63,449 nucleotides of DNA, filler included, from Reclinomonas americana ATCC 50394 (GCA_048213135.1; 5 parts of 3 records of this genome joined end to end with filler, not necessarily neighbours in it), one strand, 5' to 3'. Numbered from the whole stretch's first letter, positions 401 to 63,261 are shown. Made by a program: numbers and translations. Notes: generated by a model from the sequence alone, not told the origin.

Positions 401-1783
401 AGTCCTCCCTGGTCGACTCCATCAACGGCGCCCGCCAGGCCAGCGGCGCCAAGGAAATGATTCGCGTGGCGCTGGATGTCAGCGACAATTACCCCGAGTG
501 CGCCAAGTCCATTATCAATCAGGGATCAGGTGCGGCCTTTCCTATCTCTTCCCTCTCCTCCTCCCTTCCTTCCCTAACACCTCCCTCAGTGGCGGAGGTG
601 CCGCTCGACATGCCCTACGACAAGGTGGTGCTCGGCGGCACCTTTGACCGCCTGCACCCGGGCCACAAGCTGATGCTGACCAATGCGGCCATGATCTCCG
701 GCCGCAGCGTGACCATTGGCGTCACCTGTTGCGTCCGCTCCCTCCCCCCCACCCGCCCTTTTCCTCCCGCTACTAATTTCCTCTTCTCATTAGCCGAGGA
801 GATGCTGCACAACAAGTCGTACAAGGAGCACATTCTACCGCTGGAGCGCCGCAAGCAGGACGTGATTGACTTTCTGAAAAGCGTCAACCCGAAGCTCGAC
901 TGCACGTGCACGACGCTGTTCGAGCCGTGGGGACCGACGGTTACCGATCCGCGCTTCCAGGCGCTCGTGGTGTCGGAGGAGACCAAGGCCGGTGGCGACA
1001 AGATTAATGCGTTGCGCGCGGAAAAGGGCATGGAGCCGATGGCGTTGCATGTGATTCCGCTGATTGAGCCGTCCAGGTGTGCGGGAGGGGAGACAAGAGG
1101 AGAAGGGGGTAGAGGGGTGGAGGAGAAGGGTGGAGGAGAAGGGAGGAGGAGAGGAGAGGAGAGGAGAGGAGAGAAGAGGAGAGGAGAGGAGAGGAGAGGA
1201 GAGGAGAGGAGAGGAGAGGAGAGGAGAGGAGAGGAGAGGAGAGGAGAGGAGAGGAGAGGAGAGGAGAGGAGAGGAGAGGAGANNNNNNNNNNNNNNNNNN
1301 NNNNNNNNNNNNNNNNNNNNNNNNNNNNNNNNNNNNNNNNNNNNNNNNNNNNNNNNNNNNNNNNNNNNNNNNNNNNNNNNNNNNNNAGAGCAGAGGAGGA
1401 GGAGGAGGGGAGAGGAGAAGAGGTGAGAGGAGCCAATTGGAGTTTCAGAAGCGACTTTGAAGACTGGCAGAGGTGGCGGAGTGGTGTTGGTGCGAAGCAA
1501 GTGTGTTATGCGATTCATTCACCGTCTCGGCCTCGTTGCTCATACTCTCTGACCGTTGCAGAGCCCACTCCGCGCCCAAGATCTCGAGCACGGAGATAAG
1601 AAGGTGCATTCCAGCTTCGTTCACTGCGTCGGTAGAAGATATGAGTCGCTCACCCCACATCCCGAACATGCAGGCGACTGGTGGAAAAGGCAGCGGCGCG
1701 AGCGCAAGCTGCTGCAGCTGCTGCGGCTGGGGACGACTGACGCGGATGTTTGGGGGACAGCACGATGTATTTATTTGGATTGA
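401..1783 (+). CDS. CAB4: Phosphopantetheine adenylyltransferase (eukaryotic PPAT, Cab4/COASY-type), 5'-partial, spliced
   Basis: Motifs VVLGGTFDRLHPGHK (HxGH), GPTVTDP, LVVSEET, INALRAEKG and KISSTEIR. Exons approx. 401-529, 590-727, 794-1076, 1562-1603, 1635-1783. All introns are GT-AG. Confidence 0.88.
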
Positions 1784-2000
1784 GATTGAATTGCGGGTTT
1801 TTGACAGCACAGGTCTCACTCCCGCAGCAGTGATCGTACTTCCTCTCTGCGAGGGGGGAGGGGAGAAGGGGGGGAGGGAAATGTGAGTGACAGAGAATGA
1901 GAAGAGAGAGAGAGAAAGGAAATCTGCTCTCGTATTCTGTTCATCCCTCTCGCTCTTCTTTTCGCTTTTCTTGGCAGGCACCCGTTTCACTCTCTTGCAT

Positions 2001-2183
2001 ACCTCGTCCCTGTATCGCTTCTCCTGTTGTTCAATGCGGGTAGAGTGACTTTTGGCGTCACCAACAGAAGAGTACGCAACTGCTTTCTCCCTCTTTCTCT
2101 CGCTGCACTGAGTGCCTAGGCACCACCGGTTCACCACTGTCTCACTAAGCATGCAATACGCTCCGTTGTCTGCGAGCGCGTGC

Positions 2184-2226
<43 letters not shown>

Positions 2227-2446
2227 CTCTCATTCTGTTCGCCTCTCTCCTATCCCCCATGTCTCCCTCCCACCTTATTTCTCTCCTACCGTCTCTCCCT
2301 CCCTCTTTCTCTCTTTTTTTCTCGCACTGTCCCCTCTCAAGCACCAAAGCACAGAAGGTGTCTGCGCCACCTTTCGACGACTGCCACTCTCTCACTGACA
2401 TCTCTCCCACTGTGACTTTTTCCAATCTTCCTGTAAGATGTCTTTC

Positions 2447-2497
<51 letters not shown>

Positions 2498-4295: not shown

Positions 4296-7200
4296 ATGAG
4301 GTGTGCAATCCTCTTTGGCGCAAGAATGCTTGAGAAATGTCTCTAATGTGTCTCTGGTGTGCATGTGCAGTGCTGCTCGGAAGCAGACGCGGAGGAAGAG
4401 AGCGTGGGAGATGGGGAGGGATGGCGATGTGAAGGCACTGCGCGAGTTGGTTGCGCGTAAGGGCGCTCACACGCTGTTGAAGAAAGTGGAGATGAGTGAG
4501 CATGGCAGATCTGCATTTTACTCGGCCGCTGCGAGTGGCCACCTGCCTGCGTTGGAGTATTTGTGGGAGGAGAGCGGAGTCGGGCCACAAATCGCACAAG
4601 CGGTCTGTGACGGTGGCTGGACGCCGCTGATGACGGCTGCCAACTGTGGGCGTCTTCGCGCAGTGGAATGGCTGCTTGCCGATGAGCGACGATGCCCGTC
4701 GGAGATGGTGCGGGCGGGCACCAATGACGGTGCTAGCAATCCGCAGTCCACGGCACTGCATTATGCTGCCTTGCGTGGTCATGAAGCCGTTGTGCGACTC
4801 CTCGCCACTCGCTTTCCCGACCTCATTCCCATGGTCGATCATAAGGGCAGGACTGCGGCTGAGGTGGCACGCGAGAATGGCAAGCAGCACGTGGCCGAGT
4901 TGCTCGACGGCCTTGCTGCACAGCCAGCACCGGTACAACAACCGCCGCCGCCAGCACCAGCAGCAGGAGCAGGTGCGGTCTCGTCGCCTGTATATTTGTG
5001 CACACTGCCCTATCACAATGCCCACCATTGCCGTGCTGCTTATTTGTGGCCTTTCGGACCGAGCAGTGCCAGCACATCAGGTGAGGAACTGCCATATCGC
5101 GTTTCGCTGTTTGGTCTTCCTCTGCATCTTCTCACATCGCCGTCCACCACATTGTCCAGGCGGCCGCTCCATTGACCGACAAGGACGAGTTGATCGCTCT
5201 GCTCCAGCGAGACCTTGCCGCGGCGCAGCAGGAGCGACAGGCATACGTACAAACCGTGGCGCGACTGCAGCAAGTCAATGCAGAGTCGCAACAACAAGTC
5301 ATCCAACTGCGCGGCCAGCTTGTCGTCGCGAAGCAGCAAGTGGAACAACAGAATGCCACCGTGGCGCAGCAGCAGCAAGTTAATGTGGAGTGGCAGCAAC
5401 AAGTCAACCATCTGCGCGGCGAGCTTGTTGTCGCGCAGCAGCAAGTAGAGCGACAGAGTGCCACTGTGGCGCAGCTGCAGCAAGTCAATGTGGAATGCCA
5501 GCGCACTGCCGACGAGCAACGGCGGCTGGTGGTTGAGTGGCGGGATCGATCTGTCCAGCTGCAGCAGGCACTCACCGTCGCTCACGAGGAACCGAGGCAG
5601 TTGCGAGAAGAATGTGGGGCGTCGCTGGAACGCATGGACGAGCTGCGGCAGGCGGAGCATGATCGAGCAGAGCGTCTTGCCGTCGACTTGCGGCTGGTGC
5701 ACGCGCAGCTCAATGAGCGAGGTGATTTTCAAGGTTTCAGTCTGTGTGTGCGTTCGTGTGTCAGCTGCGTTTTTTTGACCATCTCTTCGACAGTGCCGCT
5801 GACGGTGTTCACGTGGGAGCAAGTGCGCGCGATGAGCGACAACTTTCGACAGCGAATTGGGGGTGGTGGTCAAGCGGAGGTGTATGCTGGTCGGTGGATG
5901 GAGGCGGAGGTGGCGGTGAAGGTGTTTGACCTTGCAGCCGAGTGGTGCATTGACTCGTTTGCCGATGAGGTGGGTGGTGGAGAAGGAGAAGGGGGGAGAA
6001 GGGGGGAGAAGATGAAGGGGAAGGGGGAGGGGAAGGGGAAGGGGGAGGGGAAGGGGGAGGGGAAGGAGTGAAGAGGGAGAAGAAGAAGAAGAAGAAAAGG
6101 AGAGGAGGAGGAAGAAAGAAGAAGAAGGAGAAGGAGAAGAAGGAGAAGGAGAAGGGAGAAGGAGAAGGGAGAAGAAGAAGAAGAAGAAGAAGAAGNNNNN
6201 NNNNNNNNNNNNNNNAAGAAGAAGAAGAAGGAGGAGGAGAAAGGAGGAGGAGGAGGAGAAGAAGAAGAAGAAGAACAAGAAGAAGAGGAAGAGGAAGAAG
6301 TGAGGAAGAAGAATAGGAAGGAGGAGGAGGAAGAGAAGAAGGAGAAGAATAAAAAAGATGTATGAGAAGAAGAAGAAGGAAGAGGAAGAAGAAGAACAAG
6401 AACAAGAAAAAGAAGAAGAAGAAAGAATAAGAAGAACAAGAAGAAGACGCGCAAGAAGACGTAGGAGGCGGAGAAGGAGGATAAGGGGAAGGAGAGGAGA
6501 AGGAGAAGAAGAGCTGAAGGGAAGTGCGTTATTCTCACTTAATTGACGACGCAGTTGGAGAAGCTCCACAAGTTGGCGGTTCCCGGCACGGTGCGAATGA
6601 TTGGGTTTGCGGAGGCCAACCATGGCGAGCGGTGCATTGTGCTGGAGGGAATGAGGTGAGTGAGAACTGGCAGAGAAGAGAGGAGAAGGGAGAAAGTAAT
6701 GACGAATATGAGTGAGTGAGACGTAGCAAAGCCAGATCGACAGCGCGCTCGAAACAATGTGGGATTCTCATCCTCGTCCTCGTTGCATCTGTCTCCCATT
6801 CCGTCAGTCCGCACAACCTGGAGCATCGGCTGCTGGAGCATGAGATCCATGGACTGCCGGTGATGTCGATTGAGGATCGCTTGAGTTGCATTCTGCGCTG
6901 TGCGGAGGTGGTGGACGCCATGCACAAGTTGCGTGATTTACGACGGGAAATCTTGCCTCCTCGCTTGCCATACTTACTGATTGTCTCTCTCCCCCTTTTG
7001 TGTGTGCATGTTCTCACAGACTGGACAAGGTGCGATTGCTTGCATTGTGAATCGTTGTCTATTGATGGCTGCTGATTATGTCCATGCTACCTTGCTTGCA
7101 TTTTGCTGGTGCATCCGGAGCAGCCCCGTGCGTTTTCCTCGATGATGAACATCAAGCTCTTGCATCATGTCGCTGATTTCTCTTTTATGTGATGCTGGCA

Positions 7201-7998: not shown

Positions 7999-8601
7999 AG
8001 GGAGGAGGAGAGGAGGAGGAGGAGGAAAGGGGAGAAGGGAGGAGGGAGGGGGGAGGGGGAGGGGGAAGGGGAGGGGAGGGAGAGGGAGAGGGAAAGGAAT
8101 GCAGAAATATAGCAATGTTGGTGTCAGAACACATAGGAAAAACCAGAAAGCCAGGCATGATCATGAATTGGAGAAGCAATTAATTGGTAACAATGCGACG
8201 TCGCAGTATATGTGCGACCATTTGTATTGCAGTGGAAGCATCCCTGGTTAAGTGCAGCTGGCAGTTCGAATGGAGAGGAGGAGACGTACTTGGTCGCGCG
8301 CCTTGTCAAGACAACAAGACGTCGATGTCCGCTGCGTCCAGAACATAGACAGTTCAGATTGTCACAGTTCAAAAATACTCCCGTGACTCCGTCTCGGCAG
8401 ATCCAAGCGCCCAGTTGTGACTCGAGCGCACAACAGGCGGCAGCAGAGGCGGCATAAAGAGAGAGGATTGCTGTGTCACTGCAGTCGATCGATCTCGGGA
8501 GTACGAGATGATTAGATTGTGCGCTGGCATGCGAGTGGCTGTGTGTTGAAGTGGAGACGGTTCTCGCGCTCACTTTCATGTGTGTTTCTTTGCTTCCACA
8601 G

Positions 8602-23751: not shown

Positions 23752-26700
23752 TTGTAGCACACGCCATAGGTCGCACCCGGGGTGACACCCGTGACATTGA
23801 TTACATACTCAGTGTCCGTGTTCGACACAAATGCACCAATAGTGACACCGGCTGCTTGTGCACCTGTCGCGCACGTCGTGCCGCCAGTGGTGTCAATGAT
23901 GACAATTGAGTCCATGTTGGAAAGGCTGTGAGAAAGAGATGTCAGTTGAAAGCGGAAGCAGCAAGCCAGGGGAAAAGCAACTGACCCAAATCCGGTAATA
24001 GTCAGAGGAGTGACGAGTGTCTTCACAACCGAGGCCGGCGCGAAGGACGTCGTGCCTTGAATGTACAGCAGTCCTGGAGCCGTGGCAATGGGAAGTGCAC
24101 CAATCCTGCAAGAAACCAGTCAGACGTCACAATCAGACTTGCAGACCTAGCAAGCAGAAAAGGATTCCACTCACTTGACGCAGACTTTGAAGGATCCTGC
24201 AGTGGTACCGCGCACCGGCACGTTCAGTGTTTGAGTGTTGGGCGAGGTCACCGTTCCTGTTGACAAGAGGGATCAGCTTCTCAATAAAGATGAGCAAGCA
24301 TGTCATACGACGCACCGACAGTGATGCTGGCATCCGACGTGGGGCCGCAAGCCGCCGCAGACGCCACGATGGTCACCGTGTCGGTGACGGCCAGGCCGTC
24401 ACCAGCAATCGTCAGCGTTGTGTCGGTGGTGGTGCTGGGGGCGATGGACTGGTAGTAGGGAAGGGGGTGAGGAGGACGGGAATGGGGGAGAGAAGGAAAA
24501 GGGGGAAGAGGAAGGAGGAAGAAAAAGGGGGAGTGCAAGGGAGTTAAAGGGGAGTGGAAGGGGGAGTGGAAGAGGGAGTGGAAGGGGTGAGTGGAAGGGG
24601 GAGAGAAAGGGGGAGTGAAAAGGGGGAGGGAAAGGGGGACGGGAAAGGGGGACGGGAAAGGGGGAAGGGAAAGGGGGAGCGAAGGGGGTGAAAGGGGGAG
24701 TGAAAGAGGGAGGAGATGAGGGAAGGAGAAGGGGAAGTGGAATGGGGAGAATGAAAGAGAAGGGGGAAGAAGCGAAGGGGAAGCAACGGGAAGCGTAAAC
24801 TGGAGAGTTGGGAGGAGTGCGCATTCGAGAAACAGGTAAGACGAAGAGACAAGACCTTTGGTGTAAACGAGCCCGGACCCGCTGCCGTGACGAGTCCACC
24901 GGTAACAGCGACAGGTGTACCAGTGGCCGAGAAGCTGACGCACACATTCGAGTCAGAATACAATCGGTCTCTGCGTTTCATCACCCGTTTGTCACCCCCT
25001 ACGCAACGCAATGCACAGCGAGAAATTCTGCGCCGTGTTCGACGTAATGGACACAGTGATTTGCTGGCTAGTACCGCCCGCCGGTGGAGTCACAGTCACT
25101 CCGGCAGCGGCCATTGGGGTGGGAGAGCAGGCCGTGTTGGCCACGACCGCGGTCACCACATCACTGTCGTGTGTGAGCAGTGGTACCAGATGACGGAGAA
25201 GAGGCGCATTAAACGAAACTTCGTGCCCAGACCCGATCCATTGATGGAGACCACCGTGGCAGTGCCGACCGGGATGGTGGACGGAGAGATACTCGTGGTG
25301 CCTGTGCACAACGCTGTCAGGAACTAAATGCGGACAACTGTGCATTGGCACACGCACCCTGCACGTCGAGAGAGCCACCGATGGCCGCCAGCGAGCCCAC
25401 CGTCTTGAAGCACAGGAAGTAGCTGCCAGTGGCGGCGTTGGTGGTGGTAAGCGAAAAGACGTAGGTGGTCGCCGACGGGGCGGTTGGTGTGGCTGTTGGA
25501 AGGGAAGAGACAGGATGGTGAGTAAGCTGTGTTGAAAAGCATTCAATTGAAGGCAAACGAACCAGTCGCAAAACCAGTGGCTGCAGTGGCGCAGGCATTC
25601 GTCGTTGACACTTGCACGGTGGTGGTGGCCACGGTCAAACCGTAGCCGGTGAGGGTGATTGACGTGGTGCCGCTGGCCGGGACGCTCTGTGGCGGGGGAA
25701 GGAGGAAATGAGACGAAGGAAAAGAGAGACAAAGGGAGAGGGAGAGGGGGAGAGGGAGAGGGGGAGAGGGAGAGGGAGACGGAGAGGGGAGAGGGAGACG
25801 GAGAGGGAGACGGAGAGGGGAGAGGGAGACGGAGAGGGAGGAGAGGAGAGGAGAGGAGAGGAGAGGAGAGGAGAGGAGAGGAGAGGGAGACGGACAGAGA
25901 CAGAGAGGTAAGGCAAGAGAGAAAGAGATACAGAGAGGTAAGGAAAGTGCAAGATAATTAAGGTGAATTGAGATGGAAAGCAGAAAAAGAGAAACGACAG
26001 GCAAAGATGCAACGAATGGTATTCGTGGAGGGCGAAGGTGGGTGCAGGATTGAGAAAAGCGACATCAAGGGCGCGCTCTCTTTGTCGCTCACACTCGCTT
26101 TCTCTCTTTATCTGTCTATCTGTCCCTCTCTCTCTCTCTCACTCTCTTTCTCTTCGTCTCTCTCACTCTCTGGGTGCAGCACGTACCAGAGGAGAGAACG
26201 ACGTGGCGCCCGAGATGGTGAGCTGACCACCATTCACAGGAATCGGAGATGCCGCACCCGGAAGCCTGTGCCATTTCAAGTAAGCCACCCATCTGAAAGC
26301 AATGCTGCTCAAATCAACGCAACGTGATGCACAGCGTGACCAGTGCGCCAGCAGCAGAGACAGCCGTCGATGTGACCGACAGCGTCGCCTCCGTGCTTCC
26401 GGTAAACGTGGGCATCGCACCGATGGTGATGCTGGCCGGCTGGGCGTCACCGCAATTGCCACTGGTGACGGCCTTGAAGGCGTCGCCCATGGCCAGACCG
26501 AAGCCAGTGACAATCACATTGGTGGCGGCGTTCACTTGGATTTCGGTGGGCGAGAAGGTGGTAGTGCCTGCCAGCGGAGAATAATCAGTAACCACAAAAA
26601 TGGAAGAGGGGGGTGAGCAATCCATACCAGCAACAGTGAGGACGCTGCCTGCGGCCGTGTATGTGGCTCCACCACCAAAGCTGCAATGCACAAAGCACGT

Positions 26701-29700
26701 AAGCTGCAGCGAATCCCATTGTTGCTCTTTCCTCTTCATCTCACACTCACCTGATGCAAATGGTGAAAGTGCCAGCGACGGTCGACTGCGCCTGAATGTT
26801 CACCGGCAGCAGAATGGCCGTCGGCGCGGGATTGGTACTCAGCGTGGCGGTCACATTGGCGGCCGGCGTGGGATTGCCGTTGCAGGCCGTGGCTGCGGTG
26901 CCGCTGACAATCTTCACCACGTCGTTGGCAGAGAAACCGGTGCCGGTGATGGACACGAGGGTGGTCTGGCCGGCGTTGATGGTGGCGGGGGTGAATGCTC
27001 CGGCGCCTGAAGAGGAAAAGGGGGTGGTAAGGGAAAGGGTGGTAAAGGAAAGGGTGGTAAGGGAAAGGGGTGGTGAGGGAAAGGCGGTGGTATGGGAAAG
27101 GGTGGCAAGGGAAAGGTGGTAAGGGAGGTGGTGGAAAGGGAAAGGGTGGAGAAGGTGGTAAGGGAAAGGAGAGGAAGCAAGAGGAGAAGGAGAGGAGAGG
27201 AGTGGAGTAGAGAGGGGAGGGAAGGAAAGGAGAGGAGAGGCAAGGTGAGGGGGAAAGGAGAAGAGGGAAGAGGAGTGAAGAGGAGAGATGAGAGGAGGGG
27301 AGAGGAGAAGAGAGAAGTAGAGAGGAAAGTGGAGAGATGTGCAATAAGAGAAGGGATGCAAAGAGAAGGGAAACGAGAGGAGAGGAGTGAAGAGAAGAGA
27401 GTGGGAATAAGAGAGTGGTGAAAAGATATGAAAAAAGTTCGGATAAACCGAAGGATTGGAAAGGAAAATGATGAAATGAAAGAGGGAAGGAGAGGAATGC
27501 AGAAGAGTGCATGCTCAGTGTTCTCGTGCAGAACCTGCACGCGTGCTGCACATCGTCAACGAACAATAGAGAGGAAACACGAAAAAGGAGACAAGATTGC
27601 GGGATGAGAAGCCCGATGCAATTGCTACTGGAGAGCAGCGAGAAAGAAAGGAATATTTAGGAGTGAGACGAGTCGAAACAAGAGCAACTCACCTTGGATG
27701 TAAAGGAAGTTCGGCGAGGGCAGCTGCGTGTAGGCACCGCCGGTAGTCCTGCAAATCAATTCGTGTGAGTTCAAGTGGGGGATTACGCGCCGTTTCTCCT
27801 TTCCGCCTCATCTTTTCACTCCTCGCTCACCTCTCTCTGCATTAGCTATTCATCTCTCTCCCATCTCCCGCCATCTCCCGATCATTTCGCTTCTGTTATC
27901 TCCTCCCCCTGTCCTCTCATCTCCACCTCAGTTCTCTCCTCCCCCTGTCCTCTCTTCCGCTCCCCTTCTCCCTCGATCCCCTTCTGCTCTCCTATCCTCT
28001 TCTCTCCTCTCCTTTCCTTTCCTTTCCTCTCCTCTCCTCCCCTTTCCTCTCCTCTTCTCTGCTCTTCTGTCGCCCGTCGCAACTGGTAGCACACAGCAAA
28101 CGTTCCGGCGGCGGTACCAGTAGCGCTGAACGACAGAGTAGTTCCGTCGCCACTCGGCGTGATGGCGGCTACGAATGAATGTGTAAGCAGGAGTACACGA
28201 CAATCCAAGTGAACAAGAAAAACGCAACAGACGGTGACCGTGGTCGCGTCGTTGGCGCAATTCACATTGGCGGAGTTGGGCACAACGCGCACCAAGTTAC
28301 CAGCAGCAAAGCCGACGCCAGTCAACGTCACTGTGGTGGCCGCGGCGGGGATGGAGACCGGGGAGAGCGAGCTGGCGCCCGACAGGACGAGGGTGCCCGT
28401 GATGGCCACGCTGGCGGCGGCGCCCGTGTACCTGCGGATCGATAGTCACACACCAAAGACAAGAAAAAGCACAAATTGAGAGCCGCGAGTCGCAACTTGA
28501 TGCACACGGAGAGATTCTGCGGCGTCGTGCTGGCGGTGATGGGCACGGTGAGACCGGAGGCCGAGGTGGCTACATTGCCGAGAGTGATGCCACCGGGGGC
28601 GGCCGCAGTGCATGCCGAGCCCGAGGGCACGACCGTCACCACGTCACTGCGCCACAAAGTAAGACACTGACATCACCCCCACTGTGTCCCTTACAATGAC
28701 AACGCAACGTGGCCTGCAGTCCAGTGCCGGTAATGGTAACCTGCGTCGCAATGCCCACTTGCACATTCAGCGGGGAGAAAGTGGAGGCGCCGGTGACGGC
28801 CAGCGAGAGGCCCGAGACGGCAACCGAACTCGACGTGCCAATCTTGTAGCACACCGTGTAGAGTCCAGCGGGGGCGGTGGTCGAGTTCACCGTCGCCGTC
28901 AACACTGTGTCGCCCATGGTCGAGGTCGGCGCCGTGGCCGTTATGGCCGGCACAGCGGTACCCGTGCATGCTGCATTGGCGCCGCTGATAAACGTGAATT
29001 GCACGTTGGCGGCTACGAGGCCGACGCCGGTGAAGGACAGAGTGGTTCCGGTGTTCGGCAGCACCGAGGTGGGCGAGAAGGTGTTGATGCCGTCGACGGC
29101 AAAGGAGCCGCCCAGCCAGAGAGAGTACGCCTCGCCGGTGGCCAGTCTTGGAATAGGGGAAGGGGGAAAAGGGGAAAGGGGAAAGGGGAAAGGGAAGGGT
29201 GAGGGGAGGGTGAGAGAAATGAATGATAAATTATGTTGAGTGGGAACGGGGAAAGGTGAAATGAGACCGGGTGAGGAAGAAGAGCGAACGGCGGTATACG
29301 GTGAACAGGTGAAGAGGCGAAAGAGGGAAGGGGCGACAAGATGAGAGAGGAAGGAAAGGGAAAGGTGCGAACAGAGGAAAAACAAGAGAATAGAGTAACA
29401 GAAGCAGAGTGCAAAAGAGAGGAAGTCAGAAAAGCATGCAGTCGACAACTCACCGAATGCACAGATTGAGCGACTGCGCCTTGGTTGACGTCATGTTGGC
29501 GGTGAGATTGGTGGCGCCAGTCGAGGCGATGCCGGCAAATGACGTGTTCCCGTCCGCAGCGCCACTGCAGTCGCCTGGGGCGACCACCGCCATGAGCGCG
29601 TCCGATGCCGCCAGACCGGTACCCGTGGCCTTTTCGTAACAAAGAGGAATGTAAGCAGTCTGCGTGATGCTCACTTTGTGAAAATCCACTCACCGTCAGT

Positions 29701-33320: not shown

Positions 33321-33395
<75 letters not shown>

Positions 33396-37829: not shown

Positions 37830-37874
<45 letters not shown>

Positions 37875-38533
37875 GGACAAGTCTGCCTCGATAACTTTCT
37901 CTCATCCTCCCTCTGCTCGCCCCGAAGCAGCTTGTCCCTCATCCCCCTCCCTCTCTCTCTCACTCTCTTTCTCTTTCTCTCTCGCTCTTGTCCCACGAAT
38001 GCATTTTTCCGACGTCGACTGGACACGCAACAGTCGTTCCCGTAAACGTCGTGCCTCCCGCTCCCGTAACCGTCACCCCCGCAGTGGTCGATCCCGGAGC
38101 AAACCCACTCTGCGAGAGGGTTACCGTGGCGCTCGCACCTACGCGGAAAGGAAGAAGAAAGAAAGAAAATTCAGTTTCGTGAGTGATGTGCCGCACGACA
38201 TGTCGCACACGCACAAGGGGAGAGGGAAGGGAGAGAGTGTGTGAGAGTGAGAGAGACAGGGAGAGGAGGGAGAGAAGGAGAGAGAGGGAGAGAAGAGGGA
38301 GAGGAGGAGGGAGGCAGACACTCTCTCTCTCTCACACACACACAAACTCACAACTCACTGCGCACACTGCACACGCACTGCACACACTGCTCACCCTATC
38401 ACTCACACACTCACACACACACACTCTCTCTCTCTCTCACACACACACACACTCCTCTTCTCGTTACGCAACCAATGATCAAGTGGAGCAGAAGCACCAC
38501 AAGGAGCACCAGCGAGGTCGATGTCGACTTCAT
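23752..38533 (-). CDS. Giant secreted/cell-surface protein with at least 18 tandem ~95-aa Thr-rich IPT/TIG-like (Ig-fold) repeats, 3'-partial
   Basis: Signal peptide MKSTSTSLVLLVVLLLHLIIGASA (exon 38533-38473 joined to the exon starting at 38138). Repeat consensus S(F/I)SP-x6-9-T(V/L)TxTGxG..VV..C..T..(Y/F/L)xxC(Y/I/F). More than 35 frame-consistent exons. Truncated by the contig linker near 23580. Confidence 0.82.
34740..35340. repeat. Approx. 200-220 bp unit, three copies, inside an intron of the IPT-repeat gene
   Basis: CGAAGGGCTG..GTTGCGAC..GGCTGGAGTGCGAGAGTGGG..ACGACAACGAAT recurs at approx. 34750, 34963 and 35167. Confidence 0.8.
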
Positions 38534-39317: not shown

Positions 39318-42300
39318 TCACTCCTTGAACGCCACAAACCGCCGCAACATCGCCGCCTGCTCCGACGACCACTCAAAATCCTCCAATCTCTTGTGAAAGG
39401 CGGCCGTCACCGCATAAATGTACGAGCGCATCTCCCGCGAAACGCGCGCCACCTGCGGCCTCAACGCCCACGTCGATTCGGCGGGTCGCTGCTGCTGCTG
39501 NNNNNNNNNNNNNNNNNNNNGGCTGCTGCTGTTGCGACGACGTCACCTGGTGCAGCTCGTCGACGCGCAGCAGGCCGCCGAGCAGGCTGCACAGGAGCGG
39601 GTGCCAGTTGGCCTGCACCACGCCAAACTGGTCCTCGACGTACGACTTGACCATGAACACGGAGAGCACCTGCGACGACCACAGCGCCAGCTGGTGATAC
39701 CGGAAGACGGCCTCGAAATCGGTGGGCGCGTCACCCGGCGCCACAAACTGCTGCCACGCCGTGTTCATCGACTCGACGAACTCGCCGCGCGCCTTGCGAT
39801 CGACGGTGATCTTCCACAGCAGGCGCGGCCACGTCACCGTCAGCGCCTCCACCAGGCGCGGCAGCGACGAGAACGCCGAGGGCGCCTGACCGAATTTAGC
39901 GCCCACCTGCGAGCGCGCGGCGTGATATCGCGCCAAATCCTCCCGCGCCTCCAGCACCGAGTCGACGAGGATGCGTCCGGAGGTGACGGTGCGCTCGCGG
40001 AAAATCGGCACGCGATTCTCGTCGCGATTGTCCACCGGGCGGCAGCGACCGGCCTCCGCGCGCAGCGCCGNNNNNNNNNNNNNNNNNNNNNNNNNNNNNN
40101 NNNNNNNNNNNNNNNNNNNNNNNNNNNNNNNNNNNNNNNNNNNNNNNNNNNNNNNNNNNNNNNNNNNNNNNNNNNNNNNNNNNNNNNNNNNNNNNNNNNN
40201 NNNNNNNNNNNNNNNNNNNNNNNNNNNNNNNNNNNNNNNNNNNNNNNNNNNNNNNNNNNNNNNNNNNNNNNNNNNNNNNNNNNNNNNNNNNNNNNNNNNN
40301 NNNNNNNNNNNNNNNNNNNNNNNNNNNNNNNNNNNNNNNNNNNNNNNNNNNNNNNNNNNNNNNNNNNNNNNNNNNNNNNNNNNNNNNNNNNNNNNNNNNN
40401 NNNNNNNNNNNNNNNNNNNNNNNNNNNNNNNNNNNNNNNNNNNNNNNNNNNNNNNNNNNNNNNNNNNNNNNNNNNNNNNNNNNNNNNNNNNNNNNNNNNN
40501 NNNNNNNNNNNNNNNNNNNNNNNNNNNNNNNNNNNNNNNNNNNNNNNNNNNNNNNNNNNNNNNNNNNNNNNNNNNNNNNNNNNNNNNNNNNNNNNNNNNN
40601 NNNNNNNNNNNNNNNNNNNNNNNNNNNNNNNNNNNNNNNNNNNNNNNNNNNNNNNNNNNNNNNNNNNNNNNNNNNNNNNNNNNNNNNNNNNNNNNNNNNN
40701 NNNNNNNNNNNNNNNNNNNNNNNNNNNNNNNNNNNNNNNNNNNNNNNNNNNNNNNNNNNNNNNNNNNNNNNNNNNNNNNNNNNNNNNNNNNNNNNNNNNN
40801 NNNNNNNNNNNNNNNNNNNNNNNNNNNNNNNNNNNNNNNNNNNNNNNNNNNNNNNNNNNNNNNNNNNNNNNNNNNNNNNNNNNNNNNNNNNNNNNNNNNN
40901 NNNNNNNNNNNNNNNNNNNNNNNNNNNNNNNNNNNNNNNNNNNNNNNNNNNNNNNNNNNNNNNNNNNNNNNNNNNNNNNNNNNNNNNNTTGACAGCACGT
41001 CCACGTACTTTTGGCATTGCGACGACAGGCGGCTCCACCGCTCCCGCGTGTGGTCCTCAAACACGACAGCGCGGAAGCGGCGATCGCTCAGCGCGCGGTC
41101 GGACACGTAGAGCAGGCGCAGATGCTCCATGTACAGGTCGTCGTCAAAGGCGCGCAGCCACAGCGGGTCGTTGCCGGGCAGCGACACTTTGAGTTGCGCC
41201 GGGGCCATGCGCTCAAAGTCGAGGAACTCGGTGAGGAGGATCTCGCGGAGGTGGAAGTTGAGTTCGAGCAGGAAGGTGGCAAAGGTGGCGACGGCGAAGA
41301 GGTGGGTGTGGAAGGTGAACCAGCTATTTGGGAAAAGGGAAAGGGGATTTTGGAAAGGGAGACATGACAGAATGGGGCAGAGGTGTGTGGGACGCAACTG
41401 TGGCTGCGCAAAATTCCAAAACCAATTCGTGACGAGGAAGCCAATCACCGTGTGCCACCCGCCCACCAACGCCTCCAGCGCCACCTGCGGCAGGCGTTGT
41501 CGCAAGCGTGCCACCCGCGAGAAGCGCGGCACCGGCGGGAACGAGTAGCAGCGGTCGGTGGCGTAGCCCTTGCGCAGCGCAAAGCCAATGCCACACAGGC
41601 ACGCCACCCACGCCAGGCAGCCGACCGGGTACTCCTCCGACGGAATGATGAGCCACGACGACACGAGGGCGCCACTTGCTGCTGTGTTAGTAGTCGAAGT
41701 CGCCACTCCCACAACCGTCTCGCCAGCGAGGAGGAGTGGGGCGGCGGCGGCCGCGTAGAGGGCGTACGAGGCGAGGAGTTTGGCGGACAGCACGTAGCGC
41801 TTGGCCAGGCGCACGAGCCAGTGCGTGCGGACGGCGATGAGGCCGCCGGTGCCGCCGGGGAGGAAGTCGAAGAGGAAGGAGAGGGCGCGGCCGGCAAGAG
41901 TGCAGCCGAGCACAACCCTGTTGAAAGGGAAAGGGGGATAAGGGAAAGGGGGCGAGGAGGGAAAGCAAGGGAGGGAGGAGGAGGAAAGGGAGGGAGGGGG
42001 AGGAAAGGGAGGGAGGGAGAGGGAGGAAGACAACAGATCTGGTTGCTCAGAGTCAAGGAGAGGACAGCAAGACGCAAGTGACAGTGCGAGAGTGTGTTGG
42101 AGAAAGCACGCAGAAAACAGGCCAAGCTGTCCACGGTCCACAAGCGTCAAGATTCAGAGAGAGAGAGAGAGAGAGACCTCAACGACATCAGCAACAAAGC
42201 AAGATGAGCAGAGTCAAGGAGAGTAGTGCAACAAGGCATAGCATGAGATCACGAGACAAGTGTCAAGCAACAGTGCGAGAGAGCGAGACAGGAGCAGGAA

Positions 42301-46373: not shown

Positions 46374-49300
46374 AAGTGATGTTTCCACTGTTCTTGAGAA
46401 TTCACTTTTGTCCTTGTTGTTGTTGCAAGTGAGCTGTGTGCCAGTGTGAGTGCCATTTGGCCTCCTCCTTCTCTCTCTCTCTCTCCCTCTGTTTCTCCTT
46501 CTCATCGCCTTCCTTCCCCCTTGCCCCCCTTTTGCTCACGCTCCTTCCCCCTGTCCGCAGAGCCCGCGAGGAAGCCGAGGCCGCCGCCGCCGCCGCCGCT
46601 GCTGCCGTGCCTACCGACGCCGACGCCACCGCCACCGCCGCCGATGGCGAGGAAGGCACCGCCACCGCCGGCGATCCCACCAGCCCCGCCTCAGTGACCA
46701 GTCCGAGTGGCAACGGTGCGGCGTTTGTCGCCCCCGCCGCGGCGATGCCCAAGTACCGCGTCATTGACGAGGATTCCGACGAGGACGAGGACGAGGATGA
46801 GGATTTCAAGGAGCGCGACGAGCAGACGGCGCTCATTCAAAAGCACGACGCCAACACACGCACGACGGTGCGCAATCTGCGTCTGCGCGAGGACACGGCC
46901 AAGTACCTGTACAATCTCGACGTCAACTCGGCCTACTACGACCCGAAGACGCGCTCCATGCGTGCCAATCCGCGCCCCGACAAGGAGATGACCGACACGT
47001 CGTTTGCCGGCGACAATATTGTGCGCTTTTCGGGTGACGCACCAAAAGTGCTGGAGGCGCAGGTGTTTGCGTGGGAGACGGCGGAGAAGGGTGCCGATGT
47101 GCACATGCAGGCGCAGCCGACGCAGTTGGCGGTGATGGAGAAGGTGGTGGCGCAGCGCAAGGCCGAGCTGAGGGAGAAGCAGAATAAGAGTTGCGCCGGG
47201 AGGGGAGAAGGAGGGGGAAGGGGGGAGGGAAGGGAGAGAGGAGAGGAGAGGGTAGAAGAGAGAGGAGTGCCTGTTGGTGTGAGAGCGAGAGCGAGAGAGA
47301 GAGAGGGACAAAGAATGCAGGGGCAGCAGTGAGAGGGGAAGATATAGAGGGATGGCGAAGAGAGAGAAGTGAGAAGGGAGAGTGAGTGGTAGTGAGAGAG
47401 ANNNNNNNNNNNNNNNNNNNNNNNNNNNNNNNNNNNNNNNNNNNNNNNNNNNNNNNNNNNNNNNNNNNNNNNNNNNNNNNNNNNNNNNNNNNNNNNNNNN
47501 NNNNNNNNNNNNNNNNNNNNNNNNNNNNNNNNNNNNNNNNNNNNNNNNNNNNNNNNNNNNNNNNNNNNNNNNNNNNNNNNNNNNNNNNNNNNNNNNNNNN
47601 NNNNNNNNNNNNNNNNNNNNNNNNNNNNNNNNNNNNNNNNNNNNNNNNNNNNNNNNNNNNNNNNNNNNNNNNNNNNNNNNNNNNNNNNNNNNNNNNNNNN
47701 NNNNNNNNNNNNNNNNNNNNNNNNNNNNNNNNNNNNNNNNNNNNNNNNNNNNNNNNNNNNNNNNNNNNNNNNNNNNNNNNNNNNNNNNNNNNNNNNNNNN
47801 NNNNNNNNNNNNNNNNNNNNNNNNNNNNNNNNNNNNNNNNNNNNNNNNNNNNNNNNNNNNNNNNNNNNNNNNNNNNNNNNNNNNNNNNNNNNNNNNNNNN
47901 NNNNNNNNNNNNNNNNNNNNNNNNNNNNNNNNNNNNNNNNNNNNNNNNNNNNNNNNNNNNNNNNNNNNNNNNNNNNNNNNNNNNNNNNNNNNNNNNNNNN
48001 NNNNNNNNNNNNNNNNNNNNNNNNNNNNNNNNNNNNNNNNNNNNNNNNNNNNNNNNNNNNNNNNNNNNNNNNNNNNNNNNNNNNNNNNNNNNNNNNNNNN
48101 NNNNNNNNNNNNNNNNNNNNNNNNNNNNNNNNNNNNNNNNNNNNNNNNNNNNNNNNNNNNNNNNNNNNNNNNNNNNNNNNNNNNNNNNNNNNNNNNNNNN
48201 NNNNNNNNNNNNNNNNNNNNNNNNNNNNNNNNNNNNNNNNNNNNNNNNNNNNNNNNNNNNNNNNNNNNNNNNNNNNNNNNNNNNNNNNNNNNNNNNNNNN
48301 NNNNNNNNNNNNNNNNNNNNNNNNNTCGTGAGGTGTCACGGAACCGAAGGGGGACATGGGAGGAATAAGAGAGAAGGGAAGTTGTGAGTTGTGGTAGCCG
48401 GTTTGAAGTTTGGCGAGAGAGAAGAGGCGAGAAAGAAAGAGAGAAACCAGGAAGAGCGCGATACAGAAAAAACGGGGGCGAGAGAGAAGTCATTTTCTCC
48501 AAGTGTTGTTACTCACTCACGTGAGAATGCAGTGAGAAGATGGAGGTGATTAATGTTTCAAGAGAATACAGACCGACAGGCACACACAGAAAGAGAGAGA
48601 GAAAAAAACCAGGAAGAGCAATACTTTGTCCGAGAGAAATTTCACTCCCCTTTAAAGGTTACTCACTCCCTTCCCCCCTCCACCCACCCCCGCAGTGCTC
48701 CTGGAGAGGTACGGCGGCTCGGAGCACATGACCAAGGTGCCGGAGGAGTTGGTGCTGGCGGCGTCGGAGCGCTACGTGGAGTACGGTGCCGACGGCAAGC
48801 CGCTGATCAAGGCCAAGGGGCCGGTGATTGCGCGCAGCAAGTACGAGGAGGACGTGTACGTGAACAATCATTCGTCGGTGTGGGGCTCGTACTGGAAGGA
48901 TGGCCAGTGGGGCTATTCGTGTTGCAAGTCGCTGTCGAAGGACTCGTATTGCCGCGGACCCAAGTAAGTTTTGAAGAGGGAAAAGGAACTGGGTGTCGTG
49001 CTCGCTCACTTTTTCCCCTTTCGCAGTGCGCGCGACTCGGAGGACGACCTCATCGCGGAGATGATTCGGCGCAAGGAGATGGAGCTGGAGCAGAAGCGGT
49101 TGGCGGACGAGGCGGCGGCGGCGTCGGGGAGCAAGAGTGGGCGGAGAAAACGCGGGCGTAGTGAGGAGAGTGGCAGCGGGAGTGGCAACAGCGACGACGA
49201 TGACGAGGAGTTGGAGCGGAAGCGCAAGGTCAAGGAGGCGATGCGGCGGGAGCAGGAGCGCATTCGGCGGCTGCGGGAGGAGGGGTTGGCGGATGATCGG

Positions 49301-49708: not shown

Positions 49709-51045
49709 TTACGCCGACTCGGGCTTGCGCAAAAAGTAAATGTGATACTGCGAACCAAATCATGAGCTCCCAAACACACTCGCACAACACACAAAGCAAC
49801 TCAACGTGGAACATCTCCCCGATGCGCTTCACCGTCATCTCGAACGGGTGCTCGCTGAGCCATGGTCGCAGGTGCGGGAAGGCAAAGGAGATCTGCGTGG
49901 GGAGTGAGTCGGCGCGGGTGGGGCTCGCATGGAAAGCACAACCACGCACCTGAATGTACGTGCCGCCAGGGCGGAGCACGCGGTACACCTCGCGTAGCGT
50001 CCTCGCAATGTCGGCCATGCACTCCTCGCTCTTGTCGACCTGGTGGAGAGGGGAAAGAGCGAGAGGGGAAGGAGAAGGAACGGATGAGGACAAAGAGCAC
50101 ACAAAGTGAAGTGCGATAAATCCAGGGCATCGCTAATCAGAGAATGATACACCAAGTGATGAGACAAAACTTCCAGCGCATCCAGCGTGCCCTTGTCAAG
50201 CACCACGTCGTATGAGCCATCGGCATCGTCGCGCAGGTCGCGAATGTCGGCCACACGCCCTGCAAGAAGGGAGTGAGCAGAGAGCAATCAAGGCGCGTAG
50301 TGGTGACGGACAGCCCGATGAAAGAGAGAGAGAGAGAGACAAAAGCGTGACTATTCCACGAAACGGGGCAGAAAGCAATCATGAAGCAGAATCAGGAAGC
50401 GTCGACAACTGCAATGCTCTCCAGAAATGCGATTGAGGCAACGATTGCTAAACAGATGGCCATGCGCAGAAAGATCGTGCTCAGATGCGACGAGAACGAA
50501 GAACCAAAGAGAGAAGTGAGAGATGAGAAACAACAGGCGCAGCACAGGTCACATGAGACGAAGAATAGAAAAGCCCTCGCTGAACTCTGTGCTGCCCACG
50601 AAACATGTCATCTCCGGTCGCTTCTCCTGCATATTGCGGATGACCACGTCGCTGAAATCGACATTGACGAGGTTGGTGTAGCCTGCACCGCACATGAGTC
50701 TGCACGTAAAGGCTGATTCAACAGGAGCACACCGCACCAGCATCGTACAAGTCGGCCGACAATGCTATCACACAAGGTGAGCGCGACGTCGCAACACTCT
50801 CTCAAAGACAGAACACACGCAACTGCTGTTCCCACAGCCCAGATGCAGAATGCGGTCCTCGGGCTTCATCGCCGGCCTTCGAAGAAGAGACTCAGAACAA
50901 CGTACAATGAGTGACTTAGCTGAAAGTACGACGCACCGCAGGTGCTCTTCCAGATCAGACCATCGCTTGAACCACTGCTATGGAGTGAGATGACGGTGTG
51001 GACAACAGGCGTAGTACATCACACGCAACATCGTACGACTCCTCC
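49709..51045 (-). CDS. Class I SAM-dependent methyltransferase, EEF1AKMT4/METTL13-N family, 5'-partial
   Basis: Spliced EESYDWFKRW..ILHLGCGNSTLSADLYDAGYTNLVNVDFSDVVI..WRVADIRDL..YDVVLDKGTLDAL..EVYRVLRPGGTYIQISFAFPH..FHYHIYFLRK. Confidence 0.88.
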
Positions 51046-58610: not shown

Positions 58611-59578
58611 TTCATTTCTCGCGCGCAAAGGTACGCTTGCGTCATCCTCTCACACGCACTCACATGCTCTTCTCATGCTCTCTTTCTTTCTCTCTTTATT
58701 TCCTCCTTCTTTTCTTTCTTCCTTCATTTCGTGCTCTGCTGATCTCATTCTCTCTCAGTTCCTCCTTTCATCTGTATCATCTGTATGTTTCTCACTTGCT
58801 TCCTTTCCCTCTCTTGCTCTGTCTCTCTCTCTCTCTCTTTGTTTCTTCCTTCTTTTCTTCCTTCATTTCGTGCTCTGTCCTTCCATTCATCTCACTCTCT
58901 CTCTCTCTGACGCGTTTTCTCTCTTGCTTCCTTTCCATCCTTGCCCCCATCCCCTTCTGCTTCACTCACAGCTCTCTTTGTTTGCCTTGCCCCATTTTTC
59001 TTTTTCCTTTCTTTCCCTCCCTTTCCGCGTCATCCTTTCTTCCTTGTTTCTTGCTCTCTCGCTCTCAATTTTCCTTCCCTCGCTTCCCTCCATTCTTTGT
59101 CCCTCTTCATTGCTTCCTTCGTTTCTCGCTCCCTTTCTTCCTTCTCCCCTCTCCCTCTCTCTCTCTCTCTCTCTCTNNNNNNNNNNNNNNNNNNNNNNNN
59201 NNNNNNNNNNNNNNNNNNNNTTAATTAATTAANNNNNNNNNNNNNNNNNNNNNNNNNNNNNNNNNNNNNNNNNNNNAGCTCTCTCTCTCTCTCTCCGCTC
59301 TCTCTCTCTGTGTCTCTTGTGGGAGGGTCTCTGTCTGCGAATCTGCACCCTTCCCTCGTGCTCTGTTTCCCTTTTCCATTCTCTCCTTTCGTCGTGCCCC
59401 CCACTGTCACCCGTTTTTCCTTCTCCCCTCCTCTCTCTCCCCCCTCTCACTCTCCCCTCCCTCCCTCCCATCTCTCTCTCCTCCTTCTCCCCCGTACCTC
59501 CCTCTCTCTCCTCCCTCTCTCTTCTTCCTCCCTCTTACTGTTCCCCTTTCCTCACCCTTCCCCTCACTACGACCACAG

Positions 59579-60854: not shown

Positions 60855-61051
60855 NNNNNNNNNNNNNNNNNNNNNNNNNNNNNNNNNNNNNNNNNNNNTT
60901 AATTAATTAANNNNNNNNNNNNNNNNNNNNNNNNNNNNNNNNNNNNNNNNNNNNACCACCACGACGGTTGGTTTGGTTCGGGTCGGAGTGTCGTACGTAA
61001 CTTAACGTCGTCGTACGAAGTAAGTACGACGTAGTAACGACGTACGTCGTC

Positions 61052-61108
<57 letters not shown>

Positions 61109-61279
61109 TTGCACTGTCGGCCTGGAAAGCGAACAACGTGCTCTCACTCCCCTCACACACTCCCCTCACACTCTCTCTCCCTCTCTCTCCCTCACGCACA
61201 CTCACCAAGCAAGTGCAAACTCATTCTCCGCACACACACTCACTCACAAAACTATGACTCAACAAAAATCCCGCAAAAA

Positions 61280-63124
61280 ATGCAAAGGGGGGTTTGCCAG
61301 CGAATTGAACTTCAACTCGCACGAATGCAGAGTGGAGGCGACCGCACCAAACAACACCTCGAGGACTTGACATCCTTTGTCGTCGACGAGAAGAAGAATG
61401 CAAGTAACGCGCGCGCACACTCACACAAACACAAAAGTCACTCTCTCACTGACACACTCTCTCTCACTCACTCACTCACACGCAGGTGACATACAAGTGG
61501 TACAGCATGGTCGCTAGCATCTCCTTTGACGAGAGCAAGCAGTTGCGTTTTGTCACACACACACGCTCTCTCACACACTCAACTCTCACTCACACGCATT
61601 GACACAGATTGCTTGAGCGTTTGGTCAAGCAAGCAGGCGACAAGGTTGTGGCGACATACATGGTGCACGGGAAGCAGCGCGAGAGCGGTCAGCGCACAGT
61701 CACAGTTGTCACACAAGCGCAATTGCCAGGTGCGCACGTTCACCATCAAAGTCACTTTCATCACATGTGTGCTCAACCTTTTATTATGCCGCGCAGTTCA
61801 TCTACAGTCCATGGACGCGGGTGCGACAGTGTCTGTGTACAGCGTATCTCCGGCCCCGCGAGCTTCCATGGTCGCGCGCGTGCTGGGCGCGGAGTTGTAC
61901 GCGGCCGATGGAGAGCGGGCGGCCGAGGAGGTGCGGCGTGACGTGTCGCAGGCGGTGGTGGCGTTGCGTGGCATGGTGGCCAACTTGGCGGTCTCGGAGA
62001 ATGTCAGTGTGTTGGGCGCGCGAAAGGCGCTAAAGGTGAGCGCGTTATTGCAGTCCTCTTGTGTTTCTACACCGGTGCTCACTTGTCTCTTTTGATGAAG
62101 ACGCCCTCGGATCTGGCGCGTACGGCGAGTGCAGCGCGCTCCAACACCAACGAGTACATGTATCACAGCGAGCAGATGGGCGAGAACAAGGCCGCCAAGT
62201 CGGTGGTGAAGAAGCGGAATACGCTGGAGGCCATGTCTGCTCGTTTCGTGGACTTGGCTGTCTTCGCTGCATTTGTTGCATGTTTGGCTCACGAGATTGC
62301 CCGCTTCCTTTGGCAGGCATGGGTGCGGCGCCCAAGACACCTGCGCTGGTAAAGGACGAGCCGGAGCGACCGGCGGATGAGGAGGGGGAGGCGGACGATG
62401 CGGAGATGCACCAGTCGCAGGGAGAGGATGACACGGCGGCGACGGCGGCCACCTCGTCCGCACCCTCGTCGCAGTCCGATAAGAAGGCGAGCGTCGCGGC
62501 CGTCAAGAAGCCGCAGGCACCGAAAGGCAATGTCCTCGGCGCCATGTTTGCGCGACAGGCGGAGCTGGCCAAGTCGGCACCTCCCAAGCCACCACCACCG
62601 CCGCCGCCACCAGCGGCACCCGCCGGCAAGGTGCGGCCGGGGTCGGCAACCATTGCGGCCACCAAAGCCGCCGAGGTGGCGGCGGCCAAGAAGACAGCGG
62701 GCAAGAAGGGCAAGAAGGGCGCGCCGCAGAAACCACAGCAGCAGCAGCAGGAGCTGTCGGCGAAGCGGCGTGTTCTCGAGTCGGATTCGGAGGATGAGGG
62801 AGAGGATTCGGATTTCCAGTCGAGCCCGCGGAGACCACACGGTGCGTGTTGTTCCTCTCTCTTGCTCTCTCCCATCTCCCTCCTCGCTCATTGCGGCGTT
62901 CGACAGAGAAATCGGCGTGGAGCGACGACGAAGATGAGGACGGAGAGGGTGGTGGTGGCGTGGGTGGCGGTGCTGCAGTGGGAGTGGCCGACGATGAGGT
63001 GGAGGTGGTGAGCGATCGCCCGCATTCCCAGTCGCAAGGCTCCGCCTCCGACATGGACCAAAGGAAAGCAGCGACCGACGATGTGGTGATGGTGGTGGAG
63101 GATGATGCCGATGAGCAGCAGCAA
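61280..63124 (+). CDS. POLD3: DNA polymerase delta subunit 3 (POLD3/Cdc27/Pol32), 3'-partial
   Basis: N-terminal winged-helix pattern FVVDEKKN|VTYKW..SKQLL..ATYMVHG..V(S)VYSV, followed by a long K/A/P- and acid-rich disordered region. The PIP box is not reached in the window. Confidence 0.68.
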
Positions 63125-63261
63125 GTTGAGGGGAAGGGGAAGGGGAAGGGGAACGGAGAAGGCAAGGGGAAGGGGACTGGAGAAGGGGAAAAAGAAGGGG
63201 AAGTGAGGGATAGTGTGTGTGAAAGTGCGTGTGCGAGAGAGTGCCAGCGAGCGAGCGAGCG

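Follow-up and report, generated by a model that had tools for sequence, protein, structure and literature searches.

The window analysed here comes from a draft eukaryotic assembly and spans 63,449 bases, of which 6,539, in 23 gaps, are N; it carries protein-coding genes whose predicted 5' splice sites (donors) fall into two classes, one of them with an extra T after the initial GT. Pfam searches and our own gene models place in it a PPAT-like gene, NDC1, SLU7, a small methyltransferase gene and several genes without a family, as well as three tandem ankyrin/coiled-coil (kinase, RING) genes and a giant TIG-like repeat gene on the minus strand, at about 23.7-38.6 kb. The NDC1 family was recognized by a Pfam match on the exon downstream of the donor at 41398, and Pfam searches with the methyltransferase exons, one by one, gave a single weak Methyltransf_11 match, on an exon later than the donor at 50823. 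The best relatives of the SLU7 protein share 57-66% identity with it, the named ones belonging to chytrid and zygomycete fungi, cnidarians and a choanoflagellate; these searches returned no near-identical protein and no close taxon, identity being at most 66%. A metagenome scan using the NDC1 exon gave no match, and matches of the methyltransferase and PPAT exons to PDB entries by phmmer were too weak for placing junctions. Judging from these comparisons, the source is an intron-rich eukaryote without a close relative in the collections searched.

The genes were modelled with a donor-blind gene finder, in which GT was the only donor information. Coding potential was scored with a three-periodic order-3 Markov model trained iteratively on Pfam-supported open frames, in combination with an acceptor matrix and a minimum intron of 50 nucleotides (nt). 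An extra-T donor was defined as GTT..G, with G at +6 and no G at +5. The final run predicted 114 introns, of which 47 were confident, both flanking exons scoring at least 8 and the acceptor at least 2, with no better exon on the opposite strand. Among these 47, exons ending in G were followed by 15 G+5 donors, no extra-T donor and 5 others, whereas exons ending in A, C or T were followed by 2 G+5, 16 extra-T and 9 other donors (Fisher test, p=9.0e-6 for the extra-T class and p=2.0e-6 for the G+5 class). A preliminary description of this DNA had proposed that the base at -1 and the register are associated, together with a test of that association, and had estimated that about a third of introns are of the extra-T type; both claims were upheld without donor information, the extra-T share being 16/47 (34%). 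The link was weaker yet present across all 114 predicted introns (p=0.0019), and it also appeared among short introns only (n=29), where extra-T donors made up 0/13 after G and 13/16 after the other bases. By comparison, the background of 6500 GT dinucleotides in the window showed no link (39/1293 after G versus 198/5207 after non-G, p=0.19). The hexamer GTTGCG itself occurs 63 times, against a mean of 32.0 (standard deviation 5.05, maximum 46) in 100 dinucleotide shuffles, and 11 of the 47 confident donors are exactly GTTGCG, compared with 63 of about 6500 GT sites.

A second run added a donor matrix with independent positions, which is unable to encode a link between -1 and the register, and yielded extra-T donors in 0/23 cases after G versus 16/25 after non-G. 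Furthermore, we curated lists of 29 extra-T and 30 normal donors, assembled after the pattern had been seen and omitting predictions judged wrong. With paralogous positions removed, 1/20 extra-T versus 26/27 normal donors in these lists follow G (p=5.5e-11), and with the whole repeat gene removed, 0/15 versus 15/16 do so (p=5.7e-8); at least 11 different genes are involved. At the level of predicted junctions, the extra-T class is real, large and dependent on the last exon base. Other approaches were uninformative: a Viterbi model using codon usage only did not distinguish the strands, enumeration of all GT..AG pairs with open flanks produced noise, and microsatellites swamped a k-mer test of the -1 base that used no gene model. 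When the donors listed in the preliminary description were scored by their local flanks, their ranks varied between the top 0.1% and the top 94%; this test did not discriminate, as the loss of coding sequence carries no penalty in it.

The two curated classes were then compared position by position. Normal donors (n=30) have G at -1 in 28 cases, G at +3 in 26, C, A or T at +4 in 13, 11 and 5, G at +5 in 28 and T at +6 in 24. Extra-T donors (n=29) have A, C, T or G at -1 in 15, 8, 5 and 1 cases, T at +3 in 29, G or T at +4 in 24 and 5, C at +5 in 26, G at +6 in 29 and T at +7 in 21. The extra-T class is defined by T+3 and G+6, leaving only +4, +5, +7 and +8 informative for displacement. The summed Jensen-Shannon divergence over the intron-side columns is 0.35 with a one-base shift versus 2.84 without it: from +3 on, moving the normal motif by one base yields the extra-T motif. 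It is also more constrained, with C+5 in 26/29 compared with C+4 in 13/30 normal donors, and the -1 composition of the extra-T class (A15 C8 G1 T5) resembles that at -2 of the normal class (A13 C9 G3 T5).

Beyond the donor, the two classes look alike. Median intron lengths are 66 and 66.5 nt (Mann-Whitney p=0.49), the base at -3 before the acceptor is C or T in 25/25 extra-T and 24/28 normal introns, and CTCAC, CTCAT, CTTAC or CTGAC is found 8-40 nt upstream of the 3' end in both; the pyrimidine fraction is 0.67 in extra-T and 0.75 in normal introns. All modelled introns are GT-AG by construction. Since length, YAG ends and CTNAY-like motifs are common to both classes, they point to one U2-type spliceosome with two kinds of start. 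U12-type introns, whose donors are of the [A/G]TATCCTT type, likewise form a second distinct donor class within the same genes; we rejected this identity, as the donors here are GTTGCGT and the 3' regions match those of normal introns. The extra-T share also lies far above the 0.36% quoted for U12-type introns in man in the portion of PMC4856993 consulted. A one-base ambiguity of intron borders was rejected as well: moving both ends by one alters the mRNA and gives TT..GC termini.

Homologue or profile continuity offers a view of the junctions that uses neither donor sequence nor coding statistics. By this measure, intron removal gives the best score at 728, 48964, 28708, 28228, 25219, 25562 and 24315. 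In the PPAT-like gene, T/GTTGCG at 728..733 on the plus strand (the slash marks the exon-intron border) opens a 66-nt intron ending at 793 that was also chosen donor-blind. Among 25 frame-compatible GT-AG pairs, 728/793 scores highest, with 230.8 bits for a profile of 70 homologues that had been found with the read-through frame; the runner-up reaches 227.2 and the read-through 219.1 bits. For the TIG-like gene, a repeat profile of 79 states was built from contiguous open frames. It favoured three minus-strand donors that had likewise been picked donor-blind: C/GTTGCG at 28703..28708 (62-nt intron; best of 2 stop-free pairs, 59.2 versus 33.6 bits), T/GTTGCG at 28223..28228 (60-nt intron; best of 24 pairs, 58.1 versus 40.2 bits) and A/GTTTCG at 25214..25219 (56-nt intron; the sole stop-free pair within 48 nt, 57.4 bits). 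Four predicted extra-T donors (728, 28708, 28228 and 25219) are therefore best by homologue or domain-profile continuity, independently of donor sequence and coding statistics. The same profile places two normal donors on the minus strand, G/GTGCGT at 24309..24315 in a TIG-like unit (59-nt intron; best of 7 pairs, 51.7 versus 31.6 bits) and G/GTTCGT at 25556..25562, which has T+3 but G+5 (70-nt intron; best of 6 pairs, 44.7 versus 36.6 bits); the linker junction at 25357 is not placed by it. In SLU7, a homologue profile selects A/GTAAGT at 48964..48969 (plus strand) for the second intron, of 63 nt, as the best of 8 pairs (163.9 versus 143.7 bits), a normal register after a base other than G. 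Homology cannot place the donor of the first SLU7 intron at 47190, for which 109 pairs lie within 0.4 bits and the acceptor is beyond a 924-N gap. The earlier statement that several sites are fixed by conserved proteins agrees with the best-scoring pair for PPAT, if by a small margin, and fails for SLU7; for the methyltransferase the sites come from base-by-base reading, with a weak Pfam match for the family.

The TIG-like repeat gene (23700-38600, minus strand) is very large, comprising 20 or more TIG/IPT-like units, each about 100 residues long, and its introns return at the same two positions within the unit. One of its exons had no relative among longer proteins in a set of 5.8 billion proteins. 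A single position, after Cys-[Ile/Tyr/Phe], is interrupted by an intron in at least 12 units. The nine copies whose exon ends in A or C all carry GTTG[C/A]G (34319, 33947, 32263, 28496, 28083, 26323, 25007, 23751 and 35730), two ending in G carry GTGAGT (29453 and 26750), and one ending in A carries GTGAGT (24174). Most of these minus-strand donors were chosen donor-blind. They include A/GTTGCG at 28491..28496 after Cys-Ile (65-nt intron, found with the 50-nt minimum intron), at 34314..34319 (72 nt), at 33942..33947 (62 nt) and at 28078..28083 (335 nt), and C/GTTGCG at 26318..26323 (58 nt, sequence read) and at 25002..25007 (73 nt). The repeat profile ends at state 79 at 34319, 33947, 28083 and 25007, and the extra-T donors at 32263, 23751 and 35730 (minus strand) also end a repeat unit at the paralogous position. 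The normal G/GTGAGT at 29447..29453 was found donor-blind too, and the exceptional A/GTGAGT at 24168..24174 comes from the model with the position-independent matrix. Counted on translations, the spacing from the spliced Cys to the next S/T-P is 24-25 residues, versus 23-25 in units without the intron (24 at 28496; 25 at 34319, 26323 and 29453). The nine extra-T donors at this paralogous position are not independent counts. The introns differ in length (56-335 nt) and sequence and keep the seven-letter start, which is thus kept, or re-created, according to the exon base.

Further extra-T donors are spread over other genes. Donor-blind choices include A/GTTGCG at 41393..41398 (minus strand) in the NDC1-like gene, with a 75-nt in-frame intron; C/GTTTCG at 5101..5106 (plus strand) in an ankyrin/coiled-coil/kinase gene, with a 59-nt intron, a site absent from the list in the preliminary description; C/GTTTCG at 62243..62248 (plus strand), with a 74-nt intron, under the 50-nt minimum; and T/GTTGCG at 38026..38031 (minus strand), whose 465-nt intron contains a 20-N gap. 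The methyltransferase gene, on the minus strand, was also read base by base, using what we take to be the family motifs, which gave the donors, in order, D/GTTGCG, G/GTGCGT, A/GTTGCG, G/GTGCGG, T/GTTTCG, A/GTTTTG, G/GTGCGT and C/GTTGAG. Of these, T/GTTTCG at 50599..50604 (345-nt intron) was donor-blind, the reading restoring a Trp codon across the junction, and C/GTTGAG at 49800..49805, starting the last intron of 58 nt, was found both donor-blind in the first runs and by reading. Two donors come from reading only and fit the frame and motif order: A/GTTGCG at 50818..50823 (59-nt intron), just past the GCGNS codons, is the sole GT near the motif, with one acceptor giving an open frame, and was not picked by the gene finder, and T/GTTGCG at 51024..51029 starts a 52-nt intron. 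The A/GTTTTG at 50170 has a same-phase alternative, G/GTGTAT, 21 nt downstream.

As sequence motifs, the sites of the preliminary description were all found where it had put them: the 28 GTTGCG on their strands (26 after A, C or T, plus 31082 and 38472 after G), GTTGAG at 35730 and 49805, GTTTCG at 25219, 50604 and 62243, GTTTTG at 50170 and GTTACG at 53964. As donors they fared less uniformly. Of the 35 listed, 19 were chosen donor-blind and 22 with the donor matrix, the rest not being recovered this way, and the sites at 19055, 61542, 53964, 22254, 43640 and 31082 were not confirmed as donors. About 30 normal donors could be modelled, in place of the roughly 60 after G that had been counted, and the total of about 7 normal-register donors after non-G could not be reproduced, the number of true exceptions being uncertain. 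The A/GTTGCG at 6928..6933 (plus strand) does not fit: it has phase 2, whereas the only acceptor before the kinase exon encoding VHRDLKP (7201) needs phase 1, and the proposed 10-nt mini-exon hits a stop.

The rule that G-ending exons take the normal start and all others the extra-T start was obeyed by 31/47 confident predictions, and 16 did not conform. For 5 of these 16, a rule-conforming donor in the same phase lies within 45 nt (null rate 928/5957). Several model donors were rejected as wrong. At 26199 the donor is instead G/GTACGT at 26186; at 6632 and 7294 it is G/GTGAGT at 6656 and G/GTGCGA at 7303; at 24311 the repeat profile gives G/GTGCGT at 24315; and the donor at 7995 fuses two genes. 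Real or likely exceptions are A/GTAAGT at 48964, A/GTGAGT at 24174, G/GTTGCG at 38472, G/GTCTTG at 24856, G/GTGCTCA at 31352, C/GTGATT at 6933 and C/GTGAAC at 10725. Among them, the predicted SLU7 donor at 48964 is established as one genuine exception. The extra-T donor after G (38467..38472, minus strand) was chosen donor-blind, with a low upstream exon score of 3.8. The region 4411-12267 (plus strand) contains three paralogues in tandem that encode ankyrin repeats together with a coiled coil; two of them go on to a protein kinase domain and the third to a RING-like end rich in Cys, and the kinase parts hold the worst rule-fitting donors (6933 and 10725).

We tentatively favour, without calling it probable, a reading in which U2-type GT-AG introns have two starts and the same recognition RNAs read one recognition window in a fixed register. 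In the models, introns start GTG[C/A]GT, with G at +5, where the exon ends in G, and GTTGCGT where it ends in A, C or T, which puts G at +4 and +6, C at +5 and T at +7. The normal site counted from -1 (GGTGCGT) and the extra-T site counted from +1 (GTTGCGT) share the same seven letters apart from the second, G or T. The U1 small nuclear RNA (snRNA) first, and then U6 for the GCGT part, would see these letters in one register, with cleavage before the first GU. Where the exon lacks G, the G+1 of the intron would fill the slot of G-1, U+2 would face the usual partner of G+1, and everything downstream would lie one base further from the cut. Of this reading, the existence of two classes, their link with the -1 base, the motif moved by one base and the common 3' parts of the introns are observed; the pairing partners, and a catalytic step tolerating the extra U, are inferred. 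In the portion of PMC11732430 consulted, the U6 ACAGA box contacts +3 to +5. The U6-pairing G is at +6 in extra-T sites, so U6 would shift too, or a U would bulge. For the duplexes predicted with ViennaRNA, a short motif stood for the canonical U1 5' end; with it, CA/GUUGCGU adopts the +1 shifted register at minimum energy, with -6.3 kcal/mol.

Several points weigh against this reading. The shifted duplex is no better than that of a normal-register site lacking G-1 (-6.3 versus -5.9), and sites without CA upstream (CU/, AC/) pair with canonical U1 at about zero in any register. Canonical U1 pairing alone therefore fails to explain why exons not ending in G avoid the normal register, and the ways out would be a U1 recognition sequence of GC type, which would fit the near-invariant GCGT, a rule imposed by U6, U5 or proteins, or variant snRNAs. 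Exon positions -2 to -4 are equally alike in the shift or the bulge register (0.100 versus 0.106). The donors at 24856, 31352, 6933 and 10725, fixed by frame or domain continuity, belong to neither class, and exonic sense-strand copies at 1011 (C/GTTGCGC) and 5600 (A/GTTGCGA), both on the plus strand, are not donors in our models; these copies are without the T at +7 that 21/29 extra-T donors have. Every junction is a model prediction, the coding model may dislike GTTGCG codons and so end exons there, with only four extra-T donors checked free of such bias, and the PPAT margin is small (3.6 bits). Finally, p-values from the curated lists exaggerate the significance, for which the donor-blind test is the fair measure.

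The displacement of the intron side would be explained equally well by a bulged-U register, in which G+1 and U+2 keep their U1 and U6 partners, a single U, at +2 or +3, is extruded and the GCGU pairing is that of normal sites; the dependence on -1 would mean that an exon offering no G calls for a more complete helix on the intron side. One-nucleotide bulges at +2/+3 are a validated human register according to the part of PMC4856993 consulted, and the stronger constraint of the extra-T class (C+5 versus C+4) is what compensating intron-side pairing would produce. We nevertheless regard this as rather unlikely: it gives no reason for an extra U only when -1 is not G, where strong normal-register sites would serve and yet make up 2/27, and the minimum-energy duplex with canonical U1 took the mismatch (shift) form. 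Still less likely, in our view, are dedicated snRNA variants, a second U1 and perhaps a second U6 complementary to GUUGCGU that would give each class its own reader in the normal register. The near-invariance of GTTGCGT over seven positions suggests full Watson-Crick pairing, and most extra-T sites pair negligibly with canonical U1. However, the remainder of the intron is identical in both classes, and a separate reader alone leaves the exclusion of G at -1 (1/29) unexplained; moreover, Rfam and tRNA scans of the window detected no Rfam family, no tRNA, no U1, U5 or U6 gene and no snRNA gene of any other kind in it.

The pattern could also be an artefact of gene-model fitting, with the coding model ending exons before GTTGCG and one duplicated exon-intron unit counted repeatedly. 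Nine extra-T donors do sit at a single paralogous position of one gene, 16/35 listed sites were not recovered donor-blind, and several model donors were wrong, all junctions being modelled. Nonetheless, the association persists outside the repeat gene and over at least 11 genes, profile and homologue continuity blind to donor sequence and coding statistics picks extra-T donors, and at the paralogous position the introns vary in length and sequence while keeping their seven-letter start, with the copies ending in G having the normal donor. We consider an artefact improbable on these grounds. A common origin, with extra-T introns derived from one inserted element or intron family bringing its own 5' end, would account for the strong uniformity of the start. 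By inspection, however, similarity does not extend past the first seven bases and the 3' parts are like those of normal introns, and such an origin leaves the exclusion of G at -1 unexplained, which makes it highly improbable. Returning to the shared-recognition reading with two starts, its strong form would be that in about one third of U2-type introns the recognition is displaced by a nucleotide from the universal register, with U1 and U6 sitting on GCGU and G+5 lying at +6, as chosen by one exon base, or else that the lineage evolved snRNAs of the 5'-ACGC type; we hold this to be plausible, if on balance doubtful. If true, the first GU, rather than the snRNA helices, would set the cleavage site.

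Displaced registers as such have precedents. A +1 shifted U1 register was described for atypical 5' splice sites in man (Roca and Krainer 2009, as presented in the sections of PMC4856993 and PMC11162779 consulted), and it is similar in having an extra U after GU, the consensus one base downstream and G+1 in the pairing place of G-1. The validated noncanonical registers together account for about 1.5% of human sites in the consulted part of PMC4856993. Here, by contrast, the predicted class comprises 16/47 confident introns, is tied to the last exon base and has a GC-rich motif, its U1 pairing being predicted only, and G+5, a partner of U6 too, is replaced throughout. Registers with a bulge of one nucleotide at +2/+3 (Roca et al. 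2012; Tan et al. 2016, through the same part of PMC4856993) resemble the extra-T sites in that the sequence looks like the consensus after insertion of a base between +2 and +5, as the excerpt of PMC11162779 describes. In these excerpts the bulge sites in man are rare and scattered, with no -1 rule reported, whereas here they would form a major, rule-bound class. Two main classes of 5' splice site, AG//GUNNN on the U5 side and NN//GURAG on the U6 side, are described in PMC9803359, PMC11732430 and the LUC7 paper PMC11842720, as far as the consulted parts go. As here, sites without an exon-end G have the stronger and more constrained intron side; there, however, the classes overlap and share one register, whereas here the intron side is displaced by one base. 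An anticorrelation of U5- and U6-side strength within one register was not seen among our normal sites, which have both G-1 (28/30) and G+5 (28/30). In STAT3, a suppressor U6 shows pairing one register off canonical at a tandem donor (PMC11162779, in part), a single human site aided by a downstream element and not a genome-wide class.

The words "shifted" and "bulge" do not occur in the text of the review PMC11732430, and a word search of the literature, covering texts apart from their supplements, found no major donor class in a displaced register that depends on the last exon base, the donor motifs themselves leading only to primers and unrelated papers; a description in a genome paper is possible. 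Shifted and bulged registers and the split into exon-side and intron-side donors are thus already known, and the displaced register as a rule-bound major class is apparently new. Such a class would be a natural system for asking what fixes 5' cleavage, whether the U1 helix, the U6 helix or GU recognition, and a stringent test of the tolerance of the catalytic core to an extra nucleotide after GU. In practical terms, splice models trained on G+5 would put about one donor in three of this lineage in the wrong place, so that its genes would have to be predicted with a two-class donor model. Should a variant U1 or U6 exist, it would represent co-evolution of snRNA and splice code.

A few other features of the window were recorded. 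An intergenic tandem array at 43880-44864 (plus strand) consists of 5.5 copies of a 153-bp unit (alternatively 306/308 bp) that are 81-88% alike, and its Rfam matches were at chance level only. A 210-bp repeat in 2.5 copies (34708-35236) lies within a long intron of the TIG-like repeat gene, and an 85-bp repeat in 3 copies that are 97% alike (53411-53666, plus strand) lies within a modelled intron. Gaps at 23532-23631, 51199-51298, 59177-59276 and 60855-60954 share an identical odd form, 44 N, 12 bases and 44 N. Long introns of 400-700 nt, as at 25700-26180 and 24450-24850 (minus strand), combine low-complexity, purine-rich sequence close to the donor with long tracts rich in pyrimidines ahead of the acceptor.

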